This document shows positions 364 through 62,539 of a stretch of 64,000 bases of DNA, one piece after another. The stretch comes from a virus. Lineage: Duplodnaviria > Caudoviricetes. Position 1 is the stretch's first letter; the number at the start of each line of letters is the position of its first letter. The stretch covers positions 3,257 to 67,256 of IMG/VR virus record IMGVR_UViG_3300026541_000034; one strand, given 5' to 3'. The notes beneath the pieces are model-generated. The model was not told where the DNA came from. It searched no databases and saw only the letters and a list, made by a program, of their open reading frames with translations. The translations under genes were made by a program, and so were the position numbers.

Positions 364-445
364 TTTATTCAATTAATTATGGAATCTGATGATTCGGGCT
401 GAAACGATTAAGGTCTATCAGGTTAATATCAGACGGATTTCATAA
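364..445 (+). pseudogene. Degenerate second copy of the 3' end of the C1q-like gene
   Basis: Translates FIQLIMESDDSG/(frameshift)ETIKVYQVNIRRIS* versus YLELHFESEDSGDTIKVYQVNLNIRRIS* at about 240-326. Confidence 0.8.
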
Positions 446-454
446 GGGATTGCT

Positions 455-634
455 ATGACACCAGTGGAAGCTTGGAAGGTTGTTCATCAAATAGCGAGAA
501 CTGCTCCTGTACCGGGAGATGTTGGCGACGCGAGGGATGAAGCTTTGGAAATATTGAGGCAATTGGCTGAAACAGAAGTTCGAAATGAGAAAAAGCAGGC
601 GGCCACAGAAAAGCCTAAATCGAAACATCAGTGA
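455..634 (+). CDS. Small hypothetical protein (59 aa)
   Basis: ATG..TGA ORF MTPVEAWKVVHQ..., AAGGGA upstream; below ORF-track cutoff. Confidence 0.5.
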   Translation: MTPVEAWKVVHQIARTAPVPGDVGDARDEALEILRQLAETEVRNEKKQAATEKPKSKHQ

Positions 635-827
635 ATGGATTGGTACAGCCATTGATGACAAGCCACGCAAGCGCGAGTGACATCCATAAAGGCATTGGCG
701 AGTTTCCGTTCTCGATGTTGGCGATTTGCCGCCCCGTATATCCGAGTATTTGACCGAGCTTTGCTTGTGAAAGCCTAAGCTGTTTTTTGCGCACGGACTT
801 CATGGTTGCTGGTGCAAGTGGTTGCAT
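615..827 (-). CDS. XRE/Cro-C1-type helix-turn-helix protein
   Basis: LSQAKLGQILGYTGRQIANIENG motif. Confidence 0.85.
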   Translation of the reverse strand: MQPLAPATMKSVRKKQLRLSQAKLGQILGYTGRQIANIENGNSPMPLWMSLALAWLVINGCTNPFTDVSI

Positions 828-842
828 AATATGGCCTTTCAT

Positions 843-888
843 ATAGATGGGGTGGTTGGCCCGATTCTCCGGAATCGGGCCGTCTTAT
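843..888 (-). repeat. Intergenic stem-loop, family A
   Basis: TAAGAC-GGCCCGATTC-CGGA-GAATCGGGCC directly after the upstream stop codon. Confidence 0.8.
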
Positions 889-1307
889 CAGGCCGGTATT
901 TCTTTGGCCTGTTCTTCTACTTCAATGTTCTCAAGTCCATTAGGGCCGCATTGGTTAAATTGAAAGTCAAAGTCACCAGGGCCTTCTTCTTTGATGGTTT
1001 CTCTCACTTGCGCGACCGCTTCGGCTGGTGTGGTGGCCAGAACGGTCACGGTAGCTTGAAGGGAATCAGTGGCTTCGGCGTTGACAGTGACGTCAAACGT
1101 TTTCAGCTTTTTATCGCCAGGTAAGACGAATTTATCGAATTCATTTATTTCTGGCATTGATAGGGGATATTCGGGTTCGCCTTCTAATGAACACCTAAGA
1201 AATTCGACTCCTTGAGCGCCCTTGTCTTGTATGCAATACAACCCTTGATCAGTGTTGCGGTAATATACGCGGCAAAAGTCCGCGTCTACTCTGTCAAAAT
1301 TGAACAT
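888..1307 (-). CDS. Hypothetical early protein (acidic)
   Basis: ORF MFNFDRVDADFCRVYY..., SD AAGGGA. Confidence 0.7.
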   Translation of the reverse strand: MFNFDRVDADFCRVYYRNTDQGLYCIQDKGAQGVEFLRCSLEGEPEYPLSMPEINEFDKFVLPGDKKLKTFDVTVNAEATDSLQATVTVLATTPAEAVAQVRETIKEEGPGDFDFQFNQCGPNGLENIEVEEQAKEIPA

Positions 1308-1324
1308 TACTACATCCCTTGCAT

Positions 1325-1384
1325 GATGCATGATTGCATCTCATGCCGCGCCACCATTGGGCAGCGCGGCATAGGTCGCAATCA
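1325..1384 (-). repeat. Intergenic stem-loop, family B
   Basis: TGATTGC-GA-CCT-ATGCCGCG..CGCGGCAT-GAG-AT-GCAATCA-TGCATC; begins with the stop codon TGA. Confidence 0.85.
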
Positions 1385-2035
1385 GGCGGCCTTTTCGATA
1401 AGCTTCAATTCATGGCCGGTCTGATGGACGAAGTCGGGCATAGTACCGAGATCGTCTGATTCGTTTACGCGAAGGCGCATTATAATAACCACGACGTTCT
1501 TATGGCCAGCAAATCGGACGACTCCGGGTGATTCTTTTCCGGAATTCATTTGCAATGCGTGGCTGTTGAGATCCATGCATGTCTTCGCGGCCATTGCCAT
1601 ATAAGACGGCGCATAAGCGTTTGAGTATTCGCCATGGCCGCTCATATCGATAGGGAATACGCGGCGGTAATCGGGAAATGTTCCTTCAATAAAAGGCCGC
1701 GATGATATTGCTATCGCTTCTTCTTTAAACTGTCCTTTCGTTGCGTAGACAATGACTTCACCCATATCCGCGCGAAGCCTAGTCTTGCAATCCTTTTTCG
1801 GCTTGCATGCCGCTAAAACTGGCTTGCTCACTTCGACAATTGCAGGCTCTGCGCAATAGCCGGACTCGTCGTGAATGGCTATTGCAACATGTCCATTCGT
1901 TGCTACCATCAAGACGCCACCTTCTGGATGAGGTGTCACATAGACGCCCATCAGGTAATAGCGCGTTTCTTCTTTTGAAACATATGGATAGCAAAGTCTA
2001 AAAAGGTTTGCGTCAACATCGATAGGTTTTTGCAT
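1382..2035 (-). CDS. DNA polymerase III beta-clamp-like protein, N-terminally shortened (217 aa)
   Basis: ETRYYLMGVY, VATNGH and IEGTFPDYRRVFP match the DnaN middle-domain motifs ETRYYLNG/VATDGHRL/IDGxFPDY. Confidence 0.8.
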   Translation of the reverse strand: MQKPIDVDANLFRLCYPYVSKEETRYYLMGVYVTPHPEGGVLMVATNGHVAIAIHDESGYCAEPAIVEVSKPVLAACKPKKDCKTRLRADMGEVIVYATKGQFKEEAIAISSRPFIEGTFPDYRRVFPIDMSGHGEYSNAYAPSYMAMAAKTCMDLNSHALQMNSGKESPGVVRFAGHKNVVVIIMRLRVNESDDLGTMPDFVHQTGHELKLIEKAA

Positions 2036-2069
2036 TTTTCTATTTCCCATTAAGTTAGCATTTTCGGAC

Positions 2070-2117
2070 CTAAGTCCGTCGCCCCACACTCGCGAGAATG
2101 TGGGGGAACTGGCTTAG
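2070..2117 (-). repeat. Intergenic stem-loop, family A
   Basis: CTAAGCCAGTT-CCCCCACATTC-TCGC-GAGTGTGGGG-CGACGGACTTAG. Confidence 0.9.
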
Positions 2118-2416
2118 CAGTTGAGATCCACGCAAAGACTGTCTATTGCTGAATCGTTCAAAATGTCTTGATCTCCACAGTCATGGCGTTGTAGGCTTCT
2201 AAGACCTTCAATGATTGTGTATATTTCGAGATCATTGAGTGGGTACATAGACTCTTTTCTTTTTTCCAGGTCATTGACTTCCTGTAGAGAAGCTTTAAGC
2301 CAATGGAATTGATTGGGAATCATTTTATGTGTAAGTTGATTTGTTTCTATAAAGTGAGTTAGTTGAAAACTAATCGTTCTATACAGTTCTAAAAGCTTTT
2401 TGTCTTTCTGGTCCAT
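2114..2416 (-). CDS. Hypothetical early protein, paralog of 2490-2702
   Basis: Shared QK..LL..Y..L...IE...LT..MIP....WL pattern; start context GGATATAGAAATG. Confidence 0.75.
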   Translation of the reverse strand: MDQKDKKLLELYRTISFQLTHFIETNQLTHKMIPNQFHWLKASLQEVNDLEKRKESMYPLNDLEIYTIIEGLRSLQRHDCGDQDILNDSAIDSLCVDLNC

Positions 2417-2439
2417 TTCTATATCCTCATGTTGTCGGG

Positions 2440-2487
2440 CTAGGCCCGTCGCCCTGCACTCTCACGAATGCAGGGAAAGAGGCTTAG
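2440..2487 (-). repeat. Intergenic stem-loop, family A
   Basis: CTAAGCCTCTTT-CCCTGCATTC-GTGA-GAGTGCAGGG-CGACGGGCCTAG. Confidence 0.9.
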
Positions 2488-2489
2488 TT

Positions 2490-2702
2490 TCATGCAAACT
2501 GGTCTCTAAGGCGAGTAAGGCTTATTGTTAGAGGGTTGCCTTGCTTAACCTTTACCTCCATGTCGATGGCTTCTAGCAGAGTAAGCAGAAGCCAATCATA
2601 ATCATCTGGTATCATTTCGTATGTAAGCCTACCGCCTTCGATCATGTCTGATAGGCCGTCATGAAGTGCTTCATATTTCTGCAAGAGCGTTTTCTGTGTC
2701 AT
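2490..2702 (-). CDS. Hypothetical early protein, paralog of 2114-2416
   Basis: MTQKTLLQKYEAL..LTYEMIPDDYDWL; same GGATATAGAAATG start context. Confidence 0.75.
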   Translation of the reverse strand: MTQKTLLQKYEALHDGLSDMIEGGRLTYEMIPDDYDWLLLTLLEAIDMEVKVKQGNPLTISLTRLRDQFA

Positions 2703-2726
2703 TTCTATATCCCTTTTTGTGGTGCG

Positions 2727-2783
2727 CTTAGTACGCCCCATGATCCGGCCGGACGAATCCGGCCGGACTTGCGAAGTACTTAG
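2727..2783 (-). repeat. Intergenic stem-loop, family A-like
   Basis: CTAAGTAC..TCCGGCCGGA-TTCG-TCCGGCCGGA..GTACTAAG; UUCG loop. Confidence 0.8.
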
Positions 2784-3328
2784 GCTTCCATCATTTCGTC
2801 ATAGATTTTGCATATGACGTAATCGATAGAGATCGCTTGACCGCTAGTAGGTCGGCCCCAAATAATGAGACCTTCAAAATCCATATCTACTTTTTCGCCT
2901 TTCTCTGCCAGCCTTTCGGCTAGGTACTTAGATACGATCCAGTGTTCATAAATTTCGACTTGATGCGGTTCTAAATTGTTGTGTTCGCAGTAATCCTGAT
3001 TACTGGTTTCCGCAATTTGCGAAATCATAGCCGTTCTGAGATCCTCAATTGGTTCATCATCACTGCAGGCAAATCCCCAATTTTCCAGGTAAGCAGTGAC
3101 GCTTTCCCGGTCTAGGTTGCGGACATGCTCAAATACAGGTTCTTCGTAATCATCTACGGGGCAAGACAGCTCAAAAGCCTTCTCGCATAGTTCGCTGAGT
3201 TCGCCTTTTGTTGTGCCGTATCCATTCGCAAGCGTACGGACAAGGCCATTAGCGCTATGACGAACTTCTTGGCTCACGAAATCAGAGACACAGCGTTGGT
3301 AATGGGCGTCTAAGTATTTGTCGTTCAT
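2780..3328 (-). CDS. Acidic hypothetical phage early protein
   Basis: 182-aa ORF with EIYEHWIVS..WGRPTSGQAI motif; SD GAAGGA. Confidence 0.8.
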   Translation of the reverse strand: MNDKYLDAHYQRCVSDFVSQEVRHSANGLVRTLANGYGTTKGELSELCEKAFELSCPVDDYEEPVFEHVRNLDRESVTAYLENWGFACSDDEPIEDLRTAMISQIAETSNQDYCEHNNLEPHQVEIYEHWIVSKYLAERLAEKGEKVDMDFEGLIIWGRPTSGQAISIDYVICKIYDEMMEA

Positions 3329-3335
3329 AATTTGT

Positions 3336-3405
3336 CCTTCGCCACTCGATGCCTAATTGCATCCCATACCGCGCCACTAGGGCGACGCGGTAAAGGCTGG
3401 AATTA
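3336..3405 (-). repeat. Intergenic stem-loop, family B
   Basis: TAATTCC-AG-CCT-TTACCGCG..CGCGGTAT-GGG-AT-GCAATTA-GGCATCGAGTGGCGAAGG. Confidence 0.85.
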
Positions 3406-3645
3406 CAGCGCAATGGCTTGCGCTAGGTGCTTGAAATAATGCAGCACGTCGCCATTCAGGAAGTCAATTTTAACGATTGTGGTCTTGATCGCGTCTCGTT
3501 CGTTTCTGGGTGCTTGTTTCATTGCTTCGACAAGACAGCCAACGGGGATTCTATTTTCTCCACTTGGCCCATCGACAACAAGCATTTGCTCTGCGTCGAT
3601 TCCCTTTTCACTTAGAAACGTGTCAAGCCATTTTGAAAATGTCAT
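3403..3645 (-). CDS. Conserved hypothetical phage protein
   Basis: MTFSKWLDTFLSEKG..IVKIDFLNGDVLHYFKHLA; SD GAAGG. Confidence 0.8.
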   Translation of the reverse strand: MTFSKWLDTFLSEKGIDAEQMLVVDGPSGENRIPVGCLVEAMKQAPRNERDAIKTTIVKIDFLNGDVLHYFKHLAQAIAL

Positions 3646-3651
3646 GGTGTA

Positions 3652-3717
3652 CCTTCGCCACTTGATGCTTGATTGCATCCCGCGCCACGCCGCAAAGTGT
3701 GGTGCAGGTTGAAATCA
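3652..3717 (-). repeat. Intergenic stem-loop, family B
   Basis: TGATTTC-AA-CCT-GCACCACAC..GCGTGGCGC-GGG-AT-GCAATCA-AGCATCAAGTGGCGAAGG. Confidence 0.85.
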
Positions 3718-3720
3718 ATT

Positions 3721-3769
3721 CTCAGTGTCTTCAAGGTCAACCTGCTAACAGGATGACCGAGAGGCTTAG
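3721..3769 (-). repeat. Intergenic stem-loop, family A
   Basis: CTAAGCCTCTC-GGTCA-T-CCTG-TTAG-CAGG-T-TGACC..GACACTGAG; in tandem with a family B element. Confidence 0.75.
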
Positions 3770-3966
3770 GCGTATTTGGCGATATGCTTGAGAAAGATTT
3801 CTAGGTCGGTTCCGCCATTTCGTAAAAATACCAGACTAATTTCAGCCAGCATGGTCATGGTAGCGTCACATTCTGCGATCTCGTCCATGACATATTCGCG
3901 GTTCCCATTTATCCAAGAAATATACAGTTCGGTTGCACGTTCGGCTGTACCGATTACCATTTTCAT
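3766..3966 (-). CDS. Hypothetical protein, first gene of the early operon
   Basis: 66-aa ORF, SD AGAGGA. Confidence 0.7.
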   Translation of the reverse strand: MKMVIGTAERATELYISWINGNREYVMDEIAECDATMTMLAEISLVFLRNGGTDLEIFLKHIAKYA

Positions 3967-4093
3967 TTTCCTCTAAGGTTTGACCTTAAAGAAACTGAGA
4001 AGCACCTTGAGCGTCTGCTCTTTTCCCGCTTCGCCGTTCGTGTCCACCTTACGCGGTTTCGGGCTCTGCGTTGTCTGCTGCTGTTGTCCCTTC

Positions 4094-4122
4094 AATATAA
4101 GAACTCATTTCCTATTTGTCAA
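4094..4122 (-). promoter_or_regulatory. Sigma70-type promoter of the early operon
   Basis: TTGACA (4122-4117), 17-nt spacer, TATATT (4099-4094). Confidence 0.8.
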
Positions 4123-4154
4123 GTGGGCCTTATGAAATAGTTTCTGGTGACGTC

Positions 4155-4676
4155 ATGACCGAAAATACTAAAAATGCTCTTGTCGTGTACGACGGCGAGG
4201 AATCGCCTTTCGGCCTGCCAGACTTGACGGATAGTCAAATGAATTTCGTGCTTGGGATCGTCGCGGGGAAGAACGCTTCGGACGCCTACCGCGCGGCGTA
4301 CAACGCGGAAAACATGAGCGCGCCGGCCATTTGGGTAGAAGCCAGCCGGCTACGGTCTAATACTAAGGTCGCCCTATGGCTGGAACATGTGAAGGAGATG
4401 GCGCTTATTGACATTGCTTGCACTCGTGAAGCTCATCTTCGCGAACTTGAGCGATTAAAATTCTTGGCGCTAAAAAATAACAACATGGTCGCCGCGATCA
4501 ACTGCGAACATCTGCGCGGCAAGGTGTGCGGACTCTATGTGGAGCTACGCGCCGACGTTACGCCTCCTGATCCGATACGGACCTTGAACGAGATCGCAAA
4601 GCTGAATCCGCAACTCGCAGAAGCGCTGGCCGTGAAACACAATGTCGCATGGCAGCTTAAGGAAACAGTCCATTGA
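4155..4676 (+). CDS. terS: Terminase small subunit
   Basis: LTDSQMNFV..GKNASDAYRAAY..ASRL..N.KV HTH pattern of Terminase_2. Confidence 0.8.
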   Translation: MTENTKNALVVYDGEESPFGLPDLTDSQMNFVLGIVAGKNASDAYRAAYNAENMSAPAIWVEASRLRSNTKVALWLEHVKEMALIDIACTREAHLRELERLKFLALKNNNMVAAINCEHLRGKVCGLYVELRADVTPPDPIRTLNEIAKLNPQLAEALAVKHNVAWQLKETVH

Positions 4677-9454: not shown

Positions 9455-9573
9455 CTTAGGGCCTAGACACCGCTCTTCACCCACGCTAAATTGATTGATC
9501 GCCGCCAAGCACACCCGATATAGGGGACATTGAAGGGCCGCACGCGGACACGTTCGGCTCTTCATCCTGGTTG

Positions 9574-9586
9574 CTTCCGGAACACA
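9574..9586 (+). repeat. 13-bp direct repeat, left of the R-M module
   Basis: CTTCCGGAACACA. Confidence 0.85.
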
Positions 9587-9597
9587 TTGCCTGGGGT

Positions 9598-10587
9598 ATG
9601 AATATCAAATCTTTAAATACAGGTCTCCGTAAGGCAGCCAAAGCAAAGAAAGACGAGTTTTATACCCAGCTTGGTGATATTGAAAAAGAGCTAAAACACT
9701 ACAAAGATCAATTCCGCGGCAAAGTAGTATTTTGCAATTGCGATGACCCAAGAGAAAGCAATTTCGTCAAATATTTCAGCATGAATTTTGAACATTTGGG
9801 GTTGAAGAAATTGATCGCTACACATTTTCAAGATGCGGATTTATTTACGAGAGAGCATCCATATAAATTGGAATACACTGGCGATAAAAACGCTAACCGC
9901 ATACCTGATCCAGACGAGTTTACTATCGAGATGATAGGTACTGGCGACTTTCGTAGCGAAGAGTGCATAGAGCTGCAGAAAGAAGCTGATATTGTCGTAA
10001 CTAACCCGCCATTTTCTCTGTTTCGTGAGTATCTGGCACAGCTTGTGGAATATGAAAAAAAGTTTTTGATTATCGGTAGTAAAAACGTAATTACTTATAA
10101 AGATGTATTTCCTTTGATAAAGGAAAACAAAATGTGGCTTGGGTATGGATTTGAAAGAGGTAATGCATATTTTCAGACGCCATATAGCAATGATAGCTAT
10201 GCAAGCGGCGTGTACAATCCAGAAACCGGCCTTGTAAAATTTCGTAATGTAGGTTGGTTTACAAACCTTGATACCACAAAGCGTCACGAAGATTTGGTTC
10301 TTTACAAAAAATACACTCTCGCAGAATTTCCTAACTATGATAACTACGATGCGATCAATGTTAATAAAGTAGCTGACATACCAATGGATTATGACGGTTT
10401 TATGGGCGTACCGATTACCTTCACTGATAAATACAATCCTGACCAATTTGAAATGTTTGGGATAATGAACACGGGTGAAGAGAACAAGGGTATAAGGTAT
10501 GAAGGAACGCCTCATGGCAGGCCAGTAATCAACGGCGTTGAAAAATATTTGCGTATTTTAATAAAAAATAAGAAAATAAATAATTAA
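9598..10587 (+). CDS. Adenine-specific DNA methyltransferase, EcoRI-methylase family
   Basis: AKKDEFYT, VFCNCDDP and VTNPPFS motifs. Confidence 0.92.
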   Translation: MNIKSLNTGLRKAAKAKKDEFYTQLGDIEKELKHYKDQFRGKVVFCNCDDPRESNFVKYFSMNFEHLGLKKLIATHFQDADLFTREHPYKLEYTGDKNANRIPDPDEFTIEMIGTGDFRSEECIELQKEADIVVTNPPFSLFREYLAQLVEYEKKFLIIGSKNVITYKDVFPLIKENKMWLGYGFERGNAYFQTPYSNDSYASGVYNPETGLVKFRNVGWFTNLDTTKRHEDLVLYKKYTLAEFPNYDNYDAINVNKVADIPMDYDGFMGVPITFTDKYNPDQFEMFGIMNTGEENKGIRYEGTPHGRPVINGVEKYLRILIKNKKINN

Positions 10588-10588
10588 T

Positions 10589-11680
10589 ATGAAAATTGAG
10601 CTGCATAGAATCCCTGTGCGTGAAGTTATTGTCGGCTACAAAGACAGCGCCGAGGAAGGTGTAGTTGCTTACGATGGCAAGCTCGACATCCGACCAAGAT
10701 ATCAGCGTGAATTTATCTATACCGGCGATCAACGCAACGCCGTAATCAAAACAATCAAAAATGACTTCCCGCTCAATGTGATGTACTGGGTTAAAACTGG
10801 TACGGGTAATTTTGAAGTGATGGATGGTCAACAGCGCACTATTAGCATCGGGCAATATATAAACGGAGACTTTTCAATTAAAAATATCTATTTCCATAAT
10901 TTAAAGGATGAAGAACAAAACCAAATTTTGGATTATGAATTAATGGTTTACTTCTGTGAGGGCACAGACAAAGAACGACTTGACTGGTTCGAAATTGTCA
11001 ATATTGCCGGCGAAAAATTGACCGATCAAGAAATACGTAATACAGTTTACACTGGACCATGGCTTTCAGACGCAAAACTAAAGTTTAGTAAAACAGGTTG
11101 TGTCGCATACTTGTTAGCAAGCGAGCATGGATTGCTTTTAAAGGGTTCCCCAATACGTCAAGAGTACTTAGAGACTGCGTTATCGTGGATCAACTACGGA
11201 GAAGTTGCCGACTACATGGCAAAACACCAGCATCACGAATACGCTGACGAGCTGTGGAATTACTTTCAAAATGTCATTGCGTGGGTGGGCAACGTTTTTC
11301 CAAATTATCGCAAGCAAATGAAAGGTATTGGGTGGGGGGTTCTTTATAATAAGTTTCAAAATAAATCTTTTAATGCCGACGAACTGGAAGCTGAAATAGC
11401 CGAATTAATTCAAGACGACGATGTAACCAGTATTTCTGGCATTTATCCTTATGTACTGACTAGGCAAGAGAAATATCTCAACCTTCGAGCATTTAACGAC
11501 AAAATCAAGCAAGCTACCTACGAACGGCAAAAAGGTATCTGTGCTAAATGTGGTGAGTATTTTAAAATAGAGGAAATGGAAGCGGATCACATAACGCCTT
11601 GGCACGAAGGCGGCAAAACAACTTCAAAAAACTGTCAGATGTTGTGTGCGACTTGTAATCGCGTAAAAGGAGATCAATAA
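10589..11680 (+). CDS. DUF262 (GmrSD-like) plus C-terminal HNH endonuclease
   Basis: RPRYQREF, VMDGQQR, EADHITPW..GGKT..NCQMLC..CN. Confidence 0.92.
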   Translation: MKIELHRIPVREVIVGYKDSAEEGVVAYDGKLDIRPRYQREFIYTGDQRNAVIKTIKNDFPLNVMYWVKTGTGNFEVMDGQQRTISIGQYINGDFSIKNIYFHNLKDEEQNQILDYELMVYFCEGTDKERLDWFEIVNIAGEKLTDQEIRNTVYTGPWLSDAKLKFSKTGCVAYLLASEHGLLLKGSPIRQEYLETALSWINYGEVADYMAKHQHHEYADELWNYFQNVIAWVGNVFPNYRKQMKGIGWGVLYNKFQNKSFNADELEAEIAELIQDDDVTSISGIYPYVLTRQEKYLNLRAFNDKIKQATYERQKGICAKCGEYFKIEEMEADHITPWHEGGKTTSKNCQMLCATCNRVKGDQ

Positions 11681-22432: not shown

Positions 22433-23045
22433 CATTCTTTTTTGTACGCCATGTTTTGGTGGCCAGGTTTTTGCCCCTCACATGAGATCCTGCCTGGAAC
22501 TTACGGGGATTTTGACACAAATAGGGCTCGAATATGATTGGCTAATTCGGTGGAATGAAAGCCTGGTACATCGCGCGCGCATGGGCATGACCGCTGAGTT
22601 CTTGGAAACAGATCATACCCACATGATGTGGCTCGACGCTGATATCGACTTCGTAGCGGACGACGTCGCCAAGTTGTGGAATATGGATGCCGATATCGCG
22701 GTCGGCGTATATCAGATGAAGAAAGAAGGCGCCGGCTACGCGGCTTGGTTAGGGGGCAAGCTCATAACCGAGCTGGACCAGTTCAAAGAACCGATCGCGG
22801 TAGACTACGCCGGAACCGGCTTCATGATGATCAAGCGCGAAGTCATAGAGCGTCTCTCTCTCGAAGTCCCCGCCTTTGCGAATGAATATACTGATGTCCC
22901 GGCTCTTTATATGACGCCAATTAGTGGTGGCGTCCTTATGAGTGAAGATTACTTTTTCTGCGAACTCGCGCGGGAGCACGGCTACAAAGTGATGATGGAT
23001 ACGAGCGTGCGTCTCGGTCATTGGGGATTGAAGCGCTATGGATAG
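22425..23045 (+). CDS. GT-A fold (GT2-like) glycosyltransferase
   Basis: LVHRAR, WLDADI (DxD), GTGFMMIKR, SEDYFFC, GH. Confidence 0.85.
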   Translation: MSSILFCTPCFGGQVFAPHMRSCLELTGILTQIGLEYDWLIRWNESLVHRARMGMTAEFLETDHTHMMWLDADIDFVADDVAKLWNMDADIAVGVYQMKKEGAGYAAWLGGKLITELDQFKEPIAVDYAGTGFMMIKREVIERLSLEVPAFANEYTDVPALYMTPISGGVLMSEDYFFCELAREHGYKVMMDTSVRLGHWGLKRYG

Positions 23046-24499
23046 CAACCTTGTCTGAACTTGAGCTTCTTGGTGAGCTGACCGCTGAACTTGAGCGCGG
23101 CTTAGCCCAGAATAAACTCGCGACGTATGAGCCCTACAAGTTTCAGCAAGAGTTTCATGCCGCTGGTCGAGATAATCCTGAACGTATGCTTATGGCGGCG
23201 AATCGCACGGGCAAGACAATGTCGGCGGCTATCGAAGTCACTTACCATTTGACAGGTCTCTATCCTGATTGGTGGAAGGGTAAAGTATTTGAGAGTCCGA
23301 CGCTTTGTTGGACGGGCAGTACTACGAATGAGACGTCCAAAGACATCGTTCAGAAGGAGCTTATAGGCGGCTTAGGTGAGGATTTGGGTACTGGATGGGT
23401 GCCTAAATCGCTGATTGTCGGCAAGCCTACGACGCGCCAGGCCGGTGTCAAGAATGTAGTCGATTCTTTCAAGGTTCGACATGTGTCGGGTGGCTTATCA
23501 GAATGTGTTCTCAAGACCTACGAACAGGGTTGGCAAAAATGGCAAGGCGCCGCTCCTGATGTTGTTTGGCCCGATGAAGAGCCGGATGATTATATGATAT
23601 TTTCAGAAGCTCAAACCCGTATCTTGACATCGGGCGGGATTCTTCTGGTGACATTCACCCCGCTGCTCGGGCTAACCGATTTAGTGCAGCATTTCCAAGA
23701 AGGCGGCAAAGGAATCTTTCTCTTAGGCGCAACCTGGGAAGACGCTCCTCATTTGCCGAAAGATGAAAGAGATAGGCTTGCAGCTTCTTATCGCGCGCAT
23801 GAGCGGCCCGCGCGAACTAAGGGCATCCCAATGATGGGCGAAGGAGCCGTATTCCCGGTTCCTGAAGAAGATATCATGTTCAATCTTAGTGATTGGCCGG
23901 GAGGTATCCCGAGATATTTTGCTCGCATGAAAGGCTGCGACTTTGGCATGGATCATCCCGCAGCCGGTTCAGAGATCGCATGGGATCGCGACCAAGATAT
24001 TATCTATGTCATCGACTGCTATCGGAAGGCTCAAGAGAAGGCTCCGTACCACGCCGCGTGGTTCAACAAGGCAAACCGACGAATCCCGGTAGCGTGGCCG
24101 CATGACGGTATGAACCGCGAAACTGTTGGTGGCGACAAGCTCGCGGACACATACCGCAAGCATGGCGCCAACATGATGGGCAAGTCTGCGCGCTATCGAA
24201 AGTCACCAGGTCAAAAAGAAGACAAGGGCGGCCCGCAGCCGGTCGAGCCGATCGTTGATGAGGTGCTTGAGCGCATGCTTACCGGTCGCTTTAAGGTCGC
24301 TTCCCACTTGAACGGGTGGTTCGAAGAAATGCGCTCTTATCATAGGAAAGATGGCCGGATAGTTGCCCGCCGCGACGATATTTTGAAGGCAACTTTCTAC
24401 GCCGTGATGATGAAACGCTATGCGGTTACAGCCAGTGAATACAGGCCGAATGCATATGCAGGCCCGCTGGTTCCGGTTTCCAGCACGAGGTTACAATGA
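23021..24499 (+). CDS. terL: Terminase large subunit
   Basis: Walker A AANRTGKT, Walker B VVWPDEEP, C-terminal nuclease DFG..DD; true start possibly 23051. Confidence 0.95.
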   Translation: MGIEALWIATLSELELLGELTAELERGLAQNKLATYEPYKFQQEFHAAGRDNPERMLMAANRTGKTMSAAIEVTYHLTGLYPDWWKGKVFESPTLCWTGSTTNETSKDIVQKELIGGLGEDLGTGWVPKSLIVGKPTTRQAGVKNVVDSFKVRHVSGGLSECVLKTYEQGWQKWQGAAPDVVWPDEEPDDYMIFSEAQTRILTSGGILLVTFTPLLGLTDLVQHFQEGGKGIFLLGATWEDAPHLPKDERDRLAASYRAHERPARTKGIPMMGEGAVFPVPEEDIMFNLSDWPGGIPRYFARMKGCDFGMDHPAAGSEIAWDRDQDIIYVIDCYRKAQEKAPYHAAWFNKANRRIPVAWPHDGMNRETVGGDKLADTYRKHGANMMGKSARYRKSPGQKEDKGGPQPVEPIVDEVLERMLTGRFKVASHLNGWFEEMRSYHRKDGRIVARRDDILKATFYAVMMKRYAVTASEYRPNAYAGPLVPVSSTRLQ

Positions 24500-40118: not shown

Positions 40119-40430
40119 TTAGTAGGGCTCGTTCTCGTTCATTTTTTGATATGAGTCTATTTTAAAAGGCACCGTAAGTGCGTCGCTCGTTGAATATTTG
40201 CCTATGTTGACGAGGATGTCATGAATTTCCAGGCATTCATCAGCGCGAATTTTATTCTCTTTCGCACCGTAATGTTCTCCAGCTTTCGTGCATACTTCCA
40301 CCATTTTGACATATTGCCGGTGCCGGGCTAGCAGCAAAGTAGTTACCAATATTTCTTCGATTTCCCTGCTCACTCTCCGAGCGTCCTCTTCATGGTAGGG
40401 CGTTACGATAGCCCTACTCCACGCAGACAA
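40119..40430 (-). CDS. Hypothetical protein
   Basis: 103-aa ORF; start uncertain. Confidence 0.45.
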   Translation of the reverse strand: MSAWSRAIVTPYHEEDARRVSREIEEILVTTLLLARHRQYVKMVEVCTKAGEHYGAKENKIRADECLEIHDILVNIGKYSTSDALTVPFKIDSYQKMNENEPY

Positions 40431-40450
40431 TGGAGTAGGGCTTTTTTATT
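40410..40450 (+). terminator. Intrinsic terminator
   Basis: AGCCCTACTCCA-N9-TGGAGTAGGGCT followed by a T run. Confidence 0.75.
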
Positions 40451-40579
40451 TCAGGCAAGAGAAAGCCTCGCAACTGCCGGGTGGTTGATCCATACAGCTA
40501 CGAGGCTCTATCCTCTCTATCGGAACTTGGGGGTCCGTTAAAGCTCAGAGAGGAATTCCTTAAATGTGATTGACATAAC

Positions 40580-53093: not shown

Positions 53094-53846
53094 TTAGAAG
53101 GACTTGAAAGCAAAAACAACACGCCCAATAACGTGTCCCTGCATATCTTTGTCGATAATATAGGAATCAAAAGCGGAATTTAAGGGAGTTAAACGAATCA
53201 CTTTGTTTCTGCCATCTTGAGAAACGACAGAGAACTGGCGGCATACAAGACGTGGCATCTTGTTCATGTGCGCAAAAACGTAACAGCCATTCGTTAGCTC
53301 AGCAGTTGGATCGTAAAGGACACGTATTCCATATGGAAGATCTGGAGCCATGGACTCATCTTCCATGGGAATAATTTGTCCGTATCTTATGCCATGTCCC
53401 TTCATGACCTGTCCTTCTTCTAAAAGAAGCTTCGTTTCAAGCTCTGTGAGGGGAGGGAACGCTATATTGAAAAGGCTATTTACGCTGAACGAATCACTTG
53501 TAAATTCCACCTCAGAATTCACAATACCACTTTGAGTAGAGTCTGGCTCTATAAATGCTCCATTTGTTTGGTCTGGGCACAGAGCAGCAACAAGTTCCTG
53601 TGGATGAAACAGGCCGAGGATCTCATGTTTTTGAATTGGCGGCGTGCCGTTCCCAAGAAAAGCGCGGATTAATTGCTCTTCGATTCGCGGGGGCAGGTAA
53701 TCAGATGAGAATTTTAATTCGTAATACCGGTAGTTGCTATCCAGCTTAAAGCCGCCTTTCTCGGCGACTTCTCTTTGTGTGATTTGACGACTTCTCCGCA
53801 AGTTTTTAAGGCGTGTGCGTGCGAACGTTTCCGAATCTTTTTGCAT
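53094..53846 (-). CDS. CI-like repressor (XRE HTH plus S24 peptidase-like domain)
   Basis: RLKNLRRSRQITQREVA..YRYYE; DESMAP..G.RVLYDP..LTPLNSAF. Confidence 0.88.
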   Translation of the reverse strand: MQKDSETFARTRLKNLRRSRQITQREVAEKGGFKLDSNYRYYELKFSSDYLPPRIEEQLIRAFLGNGTPPIQKHEILGLFHPQELVAALCPDQTNGAFIEPDSTQSGIVNSEVEFTSDSFSVNSLFNIAFPPLTELETKLLLEEGQVMKGHGIRYGQIIPMEDESMAPDLPYGIRVLYDPTAELTNGCYVFAHMNKMPRLVCRQFSVVSQDGRNKVIRLTPLNSAFDSYIIDKDMQGHVIGRVVFAFKSF

Positions 53847-53862
53847 TTTCAAATTATCGCAT

Positions 53863-53948
53863 AGCAAAAACATTCCGACAATGAAAAAATAATTGCTAAA
53901 ACGGGAAAGCTGTGTTACTCGTTTTCCTCTAATAGCAAAAAGATTGCT
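53863..53948. promoter_or_regulatory. Putative right operators (AGCAA-N5-TTGCT)
   Basis: AGCAAAAACATTCCG 53863, GAAAAAATAATTGCT 53883, AGCAAAAAGATTGCT 53934. Confidence 0.55.
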
Positions 53949-54089
53949 GATGCAATGCGGCCAGTCGCCGTTGTATTGAATCGTCCGCGCGGCTTGGCCC
54001 CCCGCCCGCTGCCGCGCTGATGGCCCCAGACCGCCACCGCTTAAATGGTCTGGGGCACCATTTTGTAACCCCAGTATGAGGAAAGTCCC

Positions 54090-54458
54090 TTGGCAAAAAG
54101 TGTAAAGAAAATCCGCCCCGGTCATAACAGCCCGCATGACGCTGACAAAGTTCAGAACGTTCTCGATCTCGTTGCAAACTTGAACGGTCAAATTGAGACT
54201 GAAAAGGCAGCATATATGTTGGCCTGCAAAGCTATACGAAGCGATATCAAAGTCGTTTTCCGCGATGCTAAGAACGAGGGCCTTCCCGTGAAAGCTCTGA
54301 AGAATATCGTCAAGGATCGCGCCGCTGAGAAGGCTGCCGAGCGGCGCCGTACTGATTTGGATACCCCGGATTTGGAAAGCTATGATCAGATCGTATTCAT
54401 GCTCGGCGAGCTTGCCGGGACACCGTTAGGAGACTCCGCGCTCGCCGCCGCTGCATAG
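54090..54458 (+). CDS. GapR/DUF2312-like nucleoid-associated protein
   Basis: GHNS motif; IRSDIKVVFRDAKNEGLPVKALKNIVK.R matches the DUF2312 pattern DIKDVYAEAK..G.D.K.L..I. Confidence 0.65.
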   Translation: MAKSVKKIRPGHNSPHDADKVQNVLDLVANLNGQIETEKAAYMLACKAIRSDIKVVFRDAKNEGLPVKALKNIVKDRAAEKAAERRRTDLDTPDLESYDQIVFMLGELAGTPLGDSALAAAA

Positions 54459-60624: not shown

Positions 60625-60804
60625 CAAGAAAAGGAGGGGGGTAGTTGATAGATACGTATTGTCACAACTACACCCCTTTACTTTACTCCTGTGCGAGTCT
60701 ATATCTTCGCTCGTGGGCTGCAAAGCCTATGAAAAATACAAGGGGAGTGAGTACTCAGTATAACAACAACCCCATTGTTAAAATAAAAGCTGCACAAGCC
60801 AACT

Positions 60805-60852
60805 AGCGCCGCTTCTCCGGCCCCCCGCTCTGGAATGAAGCGGCGCTTTTTT
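60805..60852 (+). terminator. Intrinsic terminator between OMP and mucR
   Basis: AGCGCCGCTTC..GAAGCGGCGCT followed by TTTTT. Confidence 0.7.
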
Positions 60853-61279
60853 ATCGCCGAGTTCCAAGACCCATCTTCTTCGCAAGGTTAGATCTGGTCG
60901 TAGCATAGTTGGGAGCCACCATGGGATAGTCGTAGGGCAAGCTCCACTTCTCTCTATATTCATCTGGTGTGAGGCTAAAGTGCGTTCGTATATGCCGCTT
61001 TAGAGATTTGAACTTCTTGCCATCTTCAAGGCAGATGATGAAGTCCGGAGTGATAGATTTTTTCACAGAGACAGCAGGTATAAGATCGGGGTTTATGGGT
61101 TTTGCCTCATTGTGAGCGGCTTGGCATACAGCGTTCGATACCTCCAAAATTAGGTTTGGGAGATCAGTCATTGTAACCGTATTATTTTTAACGTAGGCGG
61201 CAACAATATCCGTCGTCAATTCGATGTTATTATCTGCCTCTTTCCCTACTGGCAACTCACCGTTCGTTTCATTTGTCAT
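60851..61279 (-). CDS. mucR: MucR/Ros family zinc-finger regulator
   Basis: LTTDIVAAYV.NN, PAVSVKKSITPD.IICLEDGKKFKSLKRH, EYREKW.LP.DYPMVAPNY..RS.LAKKMGLG. Confidence 0.97.
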   Translation of the reverse strand: MTNETNGELPVGKEADNNIELTTDIVAAYVKNNTVTMTDLPNLILEVSNAVCQAAHNEAKPINPDLIPAVSVKKSITPDFIICLEDGKKFKSLKRHIRTHFSLTPDEYREKWSLPYDYPMVAPNYATTRSNLAKKMGLGTRR

Positions 61280-62330: not shown

Positions 62331-62438
62331 CCTTTTTCTAATTTGCAAATAACTTTTGATTTTCGTCGCCCATATAGGAAATCGAAAGTTATCTCAACCT
62401 CTAGCTGCTTCCCTCTGGTAGCGCTGGGGTTTTGAGCA

Positions 62439-62478
62439 GGGTCACTGAATGGCCAGATTCAGTGACCCATTTTATTTC
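62439..62478 (+). terminator. Strong intrinsic terminator ahead of the structural-looking operon
   Basis: GGGTCACTGAAT-N6-ATTCAGTGACCC followed by ATTTTATTT. Confidence 0.75.
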
Positions 62479-62539
62479 TCCTCCCCCAAAAATTGACCGG
62501 TTCCTCCCTCTTCCGGCTGCTTTATGAAAGAGCCTAGCT

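Follow-up and report, generated by a model that had tools for sequence, protein, structure and literature searches.

Accessory operons serve phages as a testing ground for new genes, and few systems show in detail how genes without promoters are added to such operons and expressed. The question is raised by one locus of an uncultured sediment phage (Duplodnaviria; Caudoviricetes; IMG/VR record IMGVR_UViG_3300026541_000034). The record, rated complete, has 67,256 bp with a 118-bp direct repeat at its termini; the stretch analysed here, which we call the window, is 64,000 nt long (bases 3257-67256 of the record), and all coordinates are those of the window. On its minus strand lies an operon of eight genes (g1 to g8), and the seven junctions between them (J1 to J7) hold eight stable, GC-rich hairpins. 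What are these junction elements for?

Our favoured answer, to which we assign a probability of roughly one half, is that the elements are intercistronic sites of mRNA processing or stabilisation, probably of the RNase III type, which also act as joints for homologous recombination. An earlier interpretation made from the letters of the DNA (the sequence-only reading) had offered either a processing and stabilisation code or a recombination system for adding and shuffling gene cassettes; as a whole, it is partly supported.

Hairpins in every gene junction

The junctions of the operon measure 60-120 nt; in other parts of the genome, the structural genes directly adjoin or overlap one another. 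The hairpins have stems of 10-14 bp and four-base loops, and J1 contains two of them. In order of transcription, these are the J1a hairpin (3735-3758) and the J1b element (3664-3718, with an extended helix at 3669-3718, an upper stem at 3683-3704 and a small alternative hairpin, hairpin 2, at 3664-3679). J2 follows at 3348-3406 (extended helix 3353-3406, upper stem 3367-3392, hairpin 2 3348-3363), J3 at 2730-2780 (upper stem 2743-2768), J4 at 2435-2487 (extended helix 2440-2487, upper stem 2452-2475, hairpin 2 2435-2448), J5 at 2065-2117 (extended helix 2070-2117, upper stem 2082-2105, hairpin 2 2065-2078) and J6 at 1325-1385 (extended helix 1330-1385, upper stem 1344-1371, hairpin 2 1325-1340). 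The last is the J7 hairpin, with 10 bp (858-881). All are on the minus strand.

Compared with dinucleotide shuffles, all seven junctions fold better (z -2.6 to -4.5). The earlier count of eight structured elements in seven junctions, with a tandem pair in J1, is confirmed. Strong folds are concentrated here: 6 of the 24 strongest 44-nt local folds in the whole genome, counting both strands, fall in this 4.35% of it, and the operon region also has 5 of the 17 best DNA-perfect hairpins.

None of the eight elements is followed by a U-tract, and a terminator scan of 400-4400 made no call on the minus strand; the sequence-only reading was thus right that these are not intrinsic terminators. Canonical terminators, consisting of a hairpin and a U-tract, do exist elsewhere in the genome, at operon ends (40380-40530, 60780-60860 and 62420-62495), which sets the junction hairpins apart as another class of element. 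Two of these canonical terminators are flanked by an A-tract and, on the opposite side, by a U-tract, and could act bidirectionally.

Could the hairpins nevertheless act as weak transcription attenuators or pause sites and so lower expression stepwise from gene to gene, as has been proposed for the promoter early stem-loops (PeSLs) of T4-like phages? GC-rich hairpins at intergenic positions would suit such a role, and PeSL stem-loops lowered reporter expression (PMC2839356). We think this very unlikely: the elements all lack the U-tract that the same genome uses in its canonical terminators, the conserved lower stem and hairpin 2 described below would be left unexplained, and the genome encodes no NusG-like factor.

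Covarying helices and the folded strand

The same operon is present in five contigs from other phages (L020, L031, L032, L033 and L034), and two more distant relatives (L022 and L030) were also found. All relatives were obtained solely from protein clusters in Logan/ENA assemblies; the operon DNA matched no isolated phage, and single-protein locus searches of IMG/VR returned no close relative.

From the window and its relatives, three alignments of junction elements could be made: a GAUGC type (J1b, J2, J6 and homologs, n=10), a CUAAG type (J4, J5 and homologs, n=7) and the element between g3 and g4, represented in the window by J3 (n=4). In each case, and so for six of the eight elements in the window, the best model is an irregular helix with conserved single mismatches, containing 22 pairs in the GAUGC type and 20 in each of the other two. 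The helix has a GC-rich upper stem of 10-14 bp, the middle of which may have any sequence provided that it pairs, one to three conserved single mismatches, and a lower stem in which the upstream gene's stop codon lies. The proportion of paired cells is 94.9% for the GAUGC type, 95.7% for the CUAAG type and 100% for the g3-g4 type, and it drops to 12-53% when the partners are slid by one to three columns. Changes on both sides of a pair are seen at seven, four and three pairs, respectively, and the observed covariation score was attained by 0 of 500, 0 of 500 and 6 of 500 shuffles.

The upper stem of the CUAAG family is instructive, as every change at its four variable pairs is a double change. 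In J3, where three double changes are found among four genomes, 2747G>A and 2764C>T occur together in two independent metagenome runs. The loops of the elements vary freely in sequence. The two families of the sequence-only reading, with conserved outer and variable inner stems, hold up well, since the inner changes are compensated in the alignments. It had also been asked whether other phages carry related elements, and the five contigs do, with compensatory changes from which covariance models could be built. Two elements stand apart. J7 is a lone simple hairpin whose stem is the same, and whose loop is different, in each of three genomes; J1a, which has a conserved U.U mismatch and one U-A to C-G double change in L020, shares just its 5' flank with one of the families.

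Which strand folds can be told from the mismatched pairs. G.U cells far outnumber A.C cells (51 versus 8), so it is the sense strand that folds, most simply as mRNA. The predicted sense fold is also more stable than the antisense fold in 19 of 21 elements, and the covariance models give 74-105 bits to sense copies and 22-33 bits to reverse-strand copies.

The fold is private to this operon and clade: when the 67-kb genome and 16 other loci were searched with the covariance models, no further copy reached a convincing score. An Rfam scan of 400-4400 identified no family (its one match, on the opposite strand, is at chance level, E = 4.2). When two motifs were used to scan IMG/VR, the first gave 14 single matches without hairpin context, which a rough estimate places at about chance level, and the second gave none; motif scans of GTDB genomes and JGI metagenomes were empty. 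At the level of exact matches, then, the elements are not seen as host repeats or outside the clade. Phages with a small-terminase-like protein about 50% identical to that of our phage (L023, L024 and L026) are organised differently and yielded no element in searches with the models. The more distant L022 has a 77-nt junction of the same design at 429-520 of that contig, before a clamp-like gene (protein 42% identical), with 20 pairs in the predicted fold, a stop codon in the base of the stem and a short conserved motif in the 5' flank; the architecture is therefore older than the close clade.

The stop codon and the second hairpin

In both families, the stop codon of the upstream gene forms part of the lower stem, on its 5' strand. 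In the window, the base of the helix holds the UAA of g2 in J2, the UAA of g5 in J5 and the UGA of g6 in J6, and in J1b it holds a relic UGA. The partner of the stop-codon strand is the loop and 5' arm of hairpin 2, a small 5-bp hairpin between the large helix and the next ribosome-binding site, and the extended helix and hairpin 2 are mutually exclusive. The middle base of the stop codon covaries with a base in the loop of hairpin 2 (G-C in seven elements with UGA, A-U in three with UAA), and a UAG variant in L034 keeps the pairing. Hairpin 2 of the CUAAG family shows an A-U to G-C double change of its own. The upper stem begins 6-12 nt past the stop codon.

One candidate role for the stop-codon stem was to mask the next ribosome-binding site. 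Each junction was modelled by constrained folding, either free or with the first 16 nt held open to mimic a terminating ribosome. In both states the models leave the start regions 0.4-0.9 unpaired, with a mean shift of a few hundredths that goes in both directions. As there is no consistent shift in accessibility, masking was rejected as a general mechanism.

The arrangement also suggests a switch that senses ribosomes. A ribosome terminating upstream would melt the lower stem and free its 3' strand for hairpin 2, so that the junction would report the translation of the upstream gene, with coupling to downstream initiation or to protection from decay as the outcome. The position of the stop codon in the lower stem of both families, its covariation with the loop of hairpin 2, the mutual exclusion of the two folds and the separate double change in hairpin 2 of the second family would all be accounted for; judged by the size of a ribosome footprint, the upper stem also begins at about the edge of a terminating ribosome. 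Yet the modelled accessibility of Shine-Dalgarno and start sites hardly responds, no consistent pairing with the ribosome-binding site is seen, and genomes that lack gX (see below) retain the J1b element, with the relic UGA in its stem, where no gene ends. On balance, we find such a switch rather improbable.

A broader version of the idea would treat the junction as a portable two-state module that senses ribosomes and supplies a stop codon to any gene placed before it. After an untranslated cistron the full 22-bp helix would form and be cut, and after a translated one the lower stem would be open and hairpin 2 formed. Message stability would then be tied to a message's own translation, and promoter-less genes could be plugged into one operon; we offer this as speculation with the odds well against it.

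Gene content and breakpoints among relatives

The sequence-only reading had called for comparison of gene order between the elements in related phages, and the comparison shows that gene content differs and that breakpoints lie inside elements. The window has the order g1-g2-g3-g4-g5-g6-g7-g8. L031 has one more gene, gX, in the order g1-gX-g2-g3-g4-g5-g6-g7-g8, and L020 and L032 also have gX but a single fused g4/5 (g1-gX-g2-g3-g4/5-g6-g7-g8). The order in L034 is g1-g3-g4'-g5'-g6, and L033, which leaves its contig after g3, has g1-g3.

Where it is present (L020, L031 and L032), gX lies exactly between J1a and J1b; it is absent from the window and from L034. The tandem hairpins of J1 in the window therefore mark an empty site. 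The next gene, g2, is missing from L033 and L034, where an element of the J1b type is joined to the start of g3. This joint is as expected if the shared 3' parts of elements of the same family had recombined, or if g2 had entered at this point. Between the window and L031, about 340 nt that begin within J1b, span g2 and stop within J2 (placed at 3353-3718 in the window and 2796-3197 in L031) are 98% identical, with flanks of 72% identity in g1 and 80% in g3, a contrast that points to recent exchange of one gene. Elements of the CUAAG type have their 5' and 3' halves in different combinations, and the g4/g5 region is single, duplicated or split depending on the genome. The g4 and g5 proteins are paralogs (36% identity over 56 aa, E = 7e-11), and the earlier suggestion that tandem paralogs reflect cassette duplication agrees with this pair, which fits the duplication of a gene together with its 3' element. 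In coliphage FtMidnight, the homolog of g2 has a 22-nt junction without an element; thus, the elements belong to the lineage and not to the genes.

Rearrangement breakpoints in this operon lie at or inside the elements, at varying places within the shared homology and with no single fixed point. This bears on another part of the sequence-only reading, the analogy with integron attC sites, in which the elements would be recombination sites folded from single-stranded DNA and used by a site-specific recombinase. Imperfect inverted repeats that begin at the stop codon, contain unpaired bases and are conserved in their outer but variable in their inner parts would look much like attC, and the gene content between elements does vary. 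The complete genome, however, has neither a tyrosine recombinase (PF00589 gave 0 matches, with all control genomes positive) nor a serine recombinase, and without an integrase an attC-like mechanism is not supported. Core sites of the attC type (RYYYAAC and GTTRRRY) were absent from the 26 junction sequences on direct reading, a formal motif scan not having been run. Furthermore, integron attC recombines as the bottom strand, whereas G.U (or G.T) pairs here favour the coding strand, and the breakpoints are spread over different places inside shared homology. We consider such a system hardly credible and drop the analogy.

Proposed processing helices that may double as recombination joints

The reading that we favour combines a role in the message with a consequence in the genome. 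We infer RNase III-type cleavage, the stabilising role and the enzyme itself; the anatomy of the elements fits. Cleavage by the host RNase III, or a similar step specific for double strands, would fall in the irregular lower part of the helix and divide the polycistronic RNA. The upstream cistron would then be capped at its 3' end by the stable upper hairpin, and the downstream cistron, whose ribosome-binding site would be open in either state, would carry the small hairpin 2 near its 5' end.

RNase III is favoured because helices of 20-22 bp with conserved mismatches match what the enzyme needs. An idealised substrate has 22 bp, and internal loops or mismatches lead to single-strand cuts that leave stabilising 3' hairpins (PMC3867540). 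The RNase III of one alphaproteobacterium has been characterised in a paper that mentions the T7 R1.1 substrate (PMC6121014); the host probably belongs to the same bacterial group (see below).

As each genome contains several similar copies, the elements would also serve as recombination joints, that is, as short homologies at which general recombination could delete, duplicate, insert or exchange genes. We favour the view that recombination between these repeats is an evolutionary by-product or benefit.

Several points weigh against this combined reading. The upper stems are very GC-rich, and a plain exonuclease barrier would require the upper stem alone. The stop codon would be lost if the lower stem were cut on its 5' strand, so a one-sided cut is needed and has to be assumed. 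A translational role for the stop-codon stem is possible. J7 and J1a have no extended helix and fall short of the 20-22 bp found elsewhere. Finally, gene boundaries may pass for breakpoints in part because rearrangements survive only if they preserve genes.

The upper hairpins might instead be passive decay terminators that block 3'-to-5' exonucleases and set the lifetime of each cistron, with no specific cut by RNase III. Precedents for hairpins that block exonucleases are the intercistronic hairpins of the Rhodobacter puf operon and the repetitive extragenic palindromic (REP) elements. Such a role would cover every junction, J7 and J1a included, as each has a stable GC-rich hairpin after the stop codon, and it would explain why the loop sequence is free. 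It would leave unexplained the conserved lower and middle stems, the mismatches, the covariation of stop codon and loop and the constant total of 20-22 bp; we rate it as unlikely, though worth keeping in mind.

If the elements are indeed processing or stabilising sites, they give a simple rule by which operon RNA would be cut into stable single-gene messages, and a regulatory RNA repeat would be shown able to act as a recombination joint. They are short and modular and could readily be tested with reporters.

The operon and its genes

One promoter serves the whole eight-gene array. It is a sigma-70-type promoter on the minus strand at 4094-4122, with 11 of 12 consensus matches and a 17-nt spacer, and it is conserved in L020, L031 and L034; a promoter scan found no minus-strand site in any of the seven junctions. 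From this sigma-70-like promoter and the gene content we infer the labels 'early' and 'host-takeover' that have been applied to the operon. The leader is about 130 nt long (3967-4093, minus strand). At its 3' end, a 12-bp hairpin (3967-3994, minus strand) pairs with the Shine-Dalgarno sequence of g1 and is nearly invariant in four relatives; a second small hairpin in the leader shows an A-U to G-C double change. These hairpins may exert translational control of g1.

All eight genes are on the minus strand. The first, g1 (3766-3966), encodes 66 aa and belongs to no family. The product of g2 (3403-3645, 80 aa) belongs to phrog_6004, which occurs in many unrelated phages; homologs with 46-60% identity are found in FtMidnight and many mycobacteriophages, and the search also matched Vibrio, Leptospira, Bacillus and Methylophilales phages. 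This small gene has thus travelled widely. It is followed by g3 (2780-3328, 182 aa, no clear family), g4 (2490-2702, 70 aa, the short paralog) and g5 (2114-2416, 100 aa). The product of g6 (1382-2035, 217 aa) resembles a shortened sliding clamp, far below the length of a full one, and weakly matches both phage processivity-factor families and the central domain of the DNA polymerase III beta clamp. The operon ends with g7 (888-1307, 139 aa, no family) and g8 (615-827), which encodes a 70-aa helix-turn-helix protein.

The phage and its host

Protein searches of the genome identify a large terminase, a DnaB helicase, a muramidase, outer-membrane beta-barrel proteins and an S24-peptidase repressor-like protein. 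A phage RNA polymerase, integrase, resolvase, NusG and RNase III were all searched for in the complete genome, and none was found. The S24-peptidase repressor-like gene is at 53094-54191, but tyrosine and serine recombinases are both absent from the genome; should the phage be temperate, it does not use the usual enzymes for integration. Genes for GapR and GcrA are present in related phages, and by these gene contents the host is probably an alphaproteobacterium.

On the opposite strand, a small-terminase-like gene (4155-4676) adjoins the operon promoter; the large terminase gene (23021-24499) is some 18 kb away. In phages with about 50% identity to the small-terminase-like protein, a NusG-like gene is directly upstream of its gene; it is absent from this genome. 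At 9571-11680, a gene for an EcoRI-type adenine methyltransferase is followed by one for a GmrSD-N/HNH nuclease, an arrangement suggestive of a defence or anti-defence pair. Marine and sediment metagenome runs contain near-identical pieces of the phage and one 67.5-kb relative. The 12 sequencing runs listed as containing phage sequence, each with a small share, are all of DNA, and no RNA run is among them.

Comparison with known systems

In its proposed function, the array resembles the early RNase III sites of coliphage T7 (R0.3 to R1.3) and the similar sites of SP82 and SPO1. Like the elements here, these are irregular hairpins related to each other in sequence, about two helical turns long, located between genes of a phage operon transcribed by the host RNA polymerase, with internal mismatches and no U-tract, and in both cases the upstream message would be predicted to end up with a 3' hairpin. 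The two groups have no relation in sequence or in Rfam, and cleavage is predicted for the elements described here. These also differ in that the stop codon is in the helix, a 3' hairpin competes with it, the copies mark boundaries of gene gain and loss, and the host is probably an alphaproteobacterium.

The hairpins of Rhodobacter puf and the REP elements of E. coli are likewise stable, follow a stop codon within a polycistronic RNA and may block exonucleases. They are single or few per operon, whereas there is one element per junction here, with stop-codon pairing and an alternative hairpin; copies of the motifs in host genomes were not found in the scans.

Integron attC sites resemble the elements as imperfect palindromes that start from the gene end and have conserved outer and variable inner parts, and the genes of an integron array likewise lack promoters of their own and are read from a single one upstream. 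The phage, however, has no integrase, attI or core motifs, the strand preference is the wrong one, and the breakpoints vary.

The PeSLs of T4-like phages (PMC2839356, PMC4122927) share with our array a repeated intergenic unit of stem-loop, Shine-Dalgarno sequence and start codon, the company of small genes without known function, and indels or replacements between close relatives that are bounded by the motifs. Homologous recombination between PeSL copies is the proposed cause of these indels and replacements (PMC2839356, PMC4122927). By definition, each PeSL unit also contains a strong sigma-70 promoter (PMC2839356). Here the junctions have none, one promoter being used for the whole array, so that strictly the elements do not count as PeSLs; the PeSL analogy of the sequence-only reading stands for the unit of stem-loop, Shine-Dalgarno and start and for the element-bounded indels, and fails at the promoter. 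The stem of a PeSL is proposed as a terminator, whereas the mRNA helix here is longer, covaries and takes in the stop codon.

What is new in this array is the stem that contains a stop codon and has a covarying alternative hairpin, and the presence of one such element per junction under a single promoter. Comparison of the contigs also provides direct evidence of cassette exchange in an uncultured phage clade. By analogy, then, the array would resemble the early RNase III sites of T7 in how it works and the PeSLs in how it evolves.

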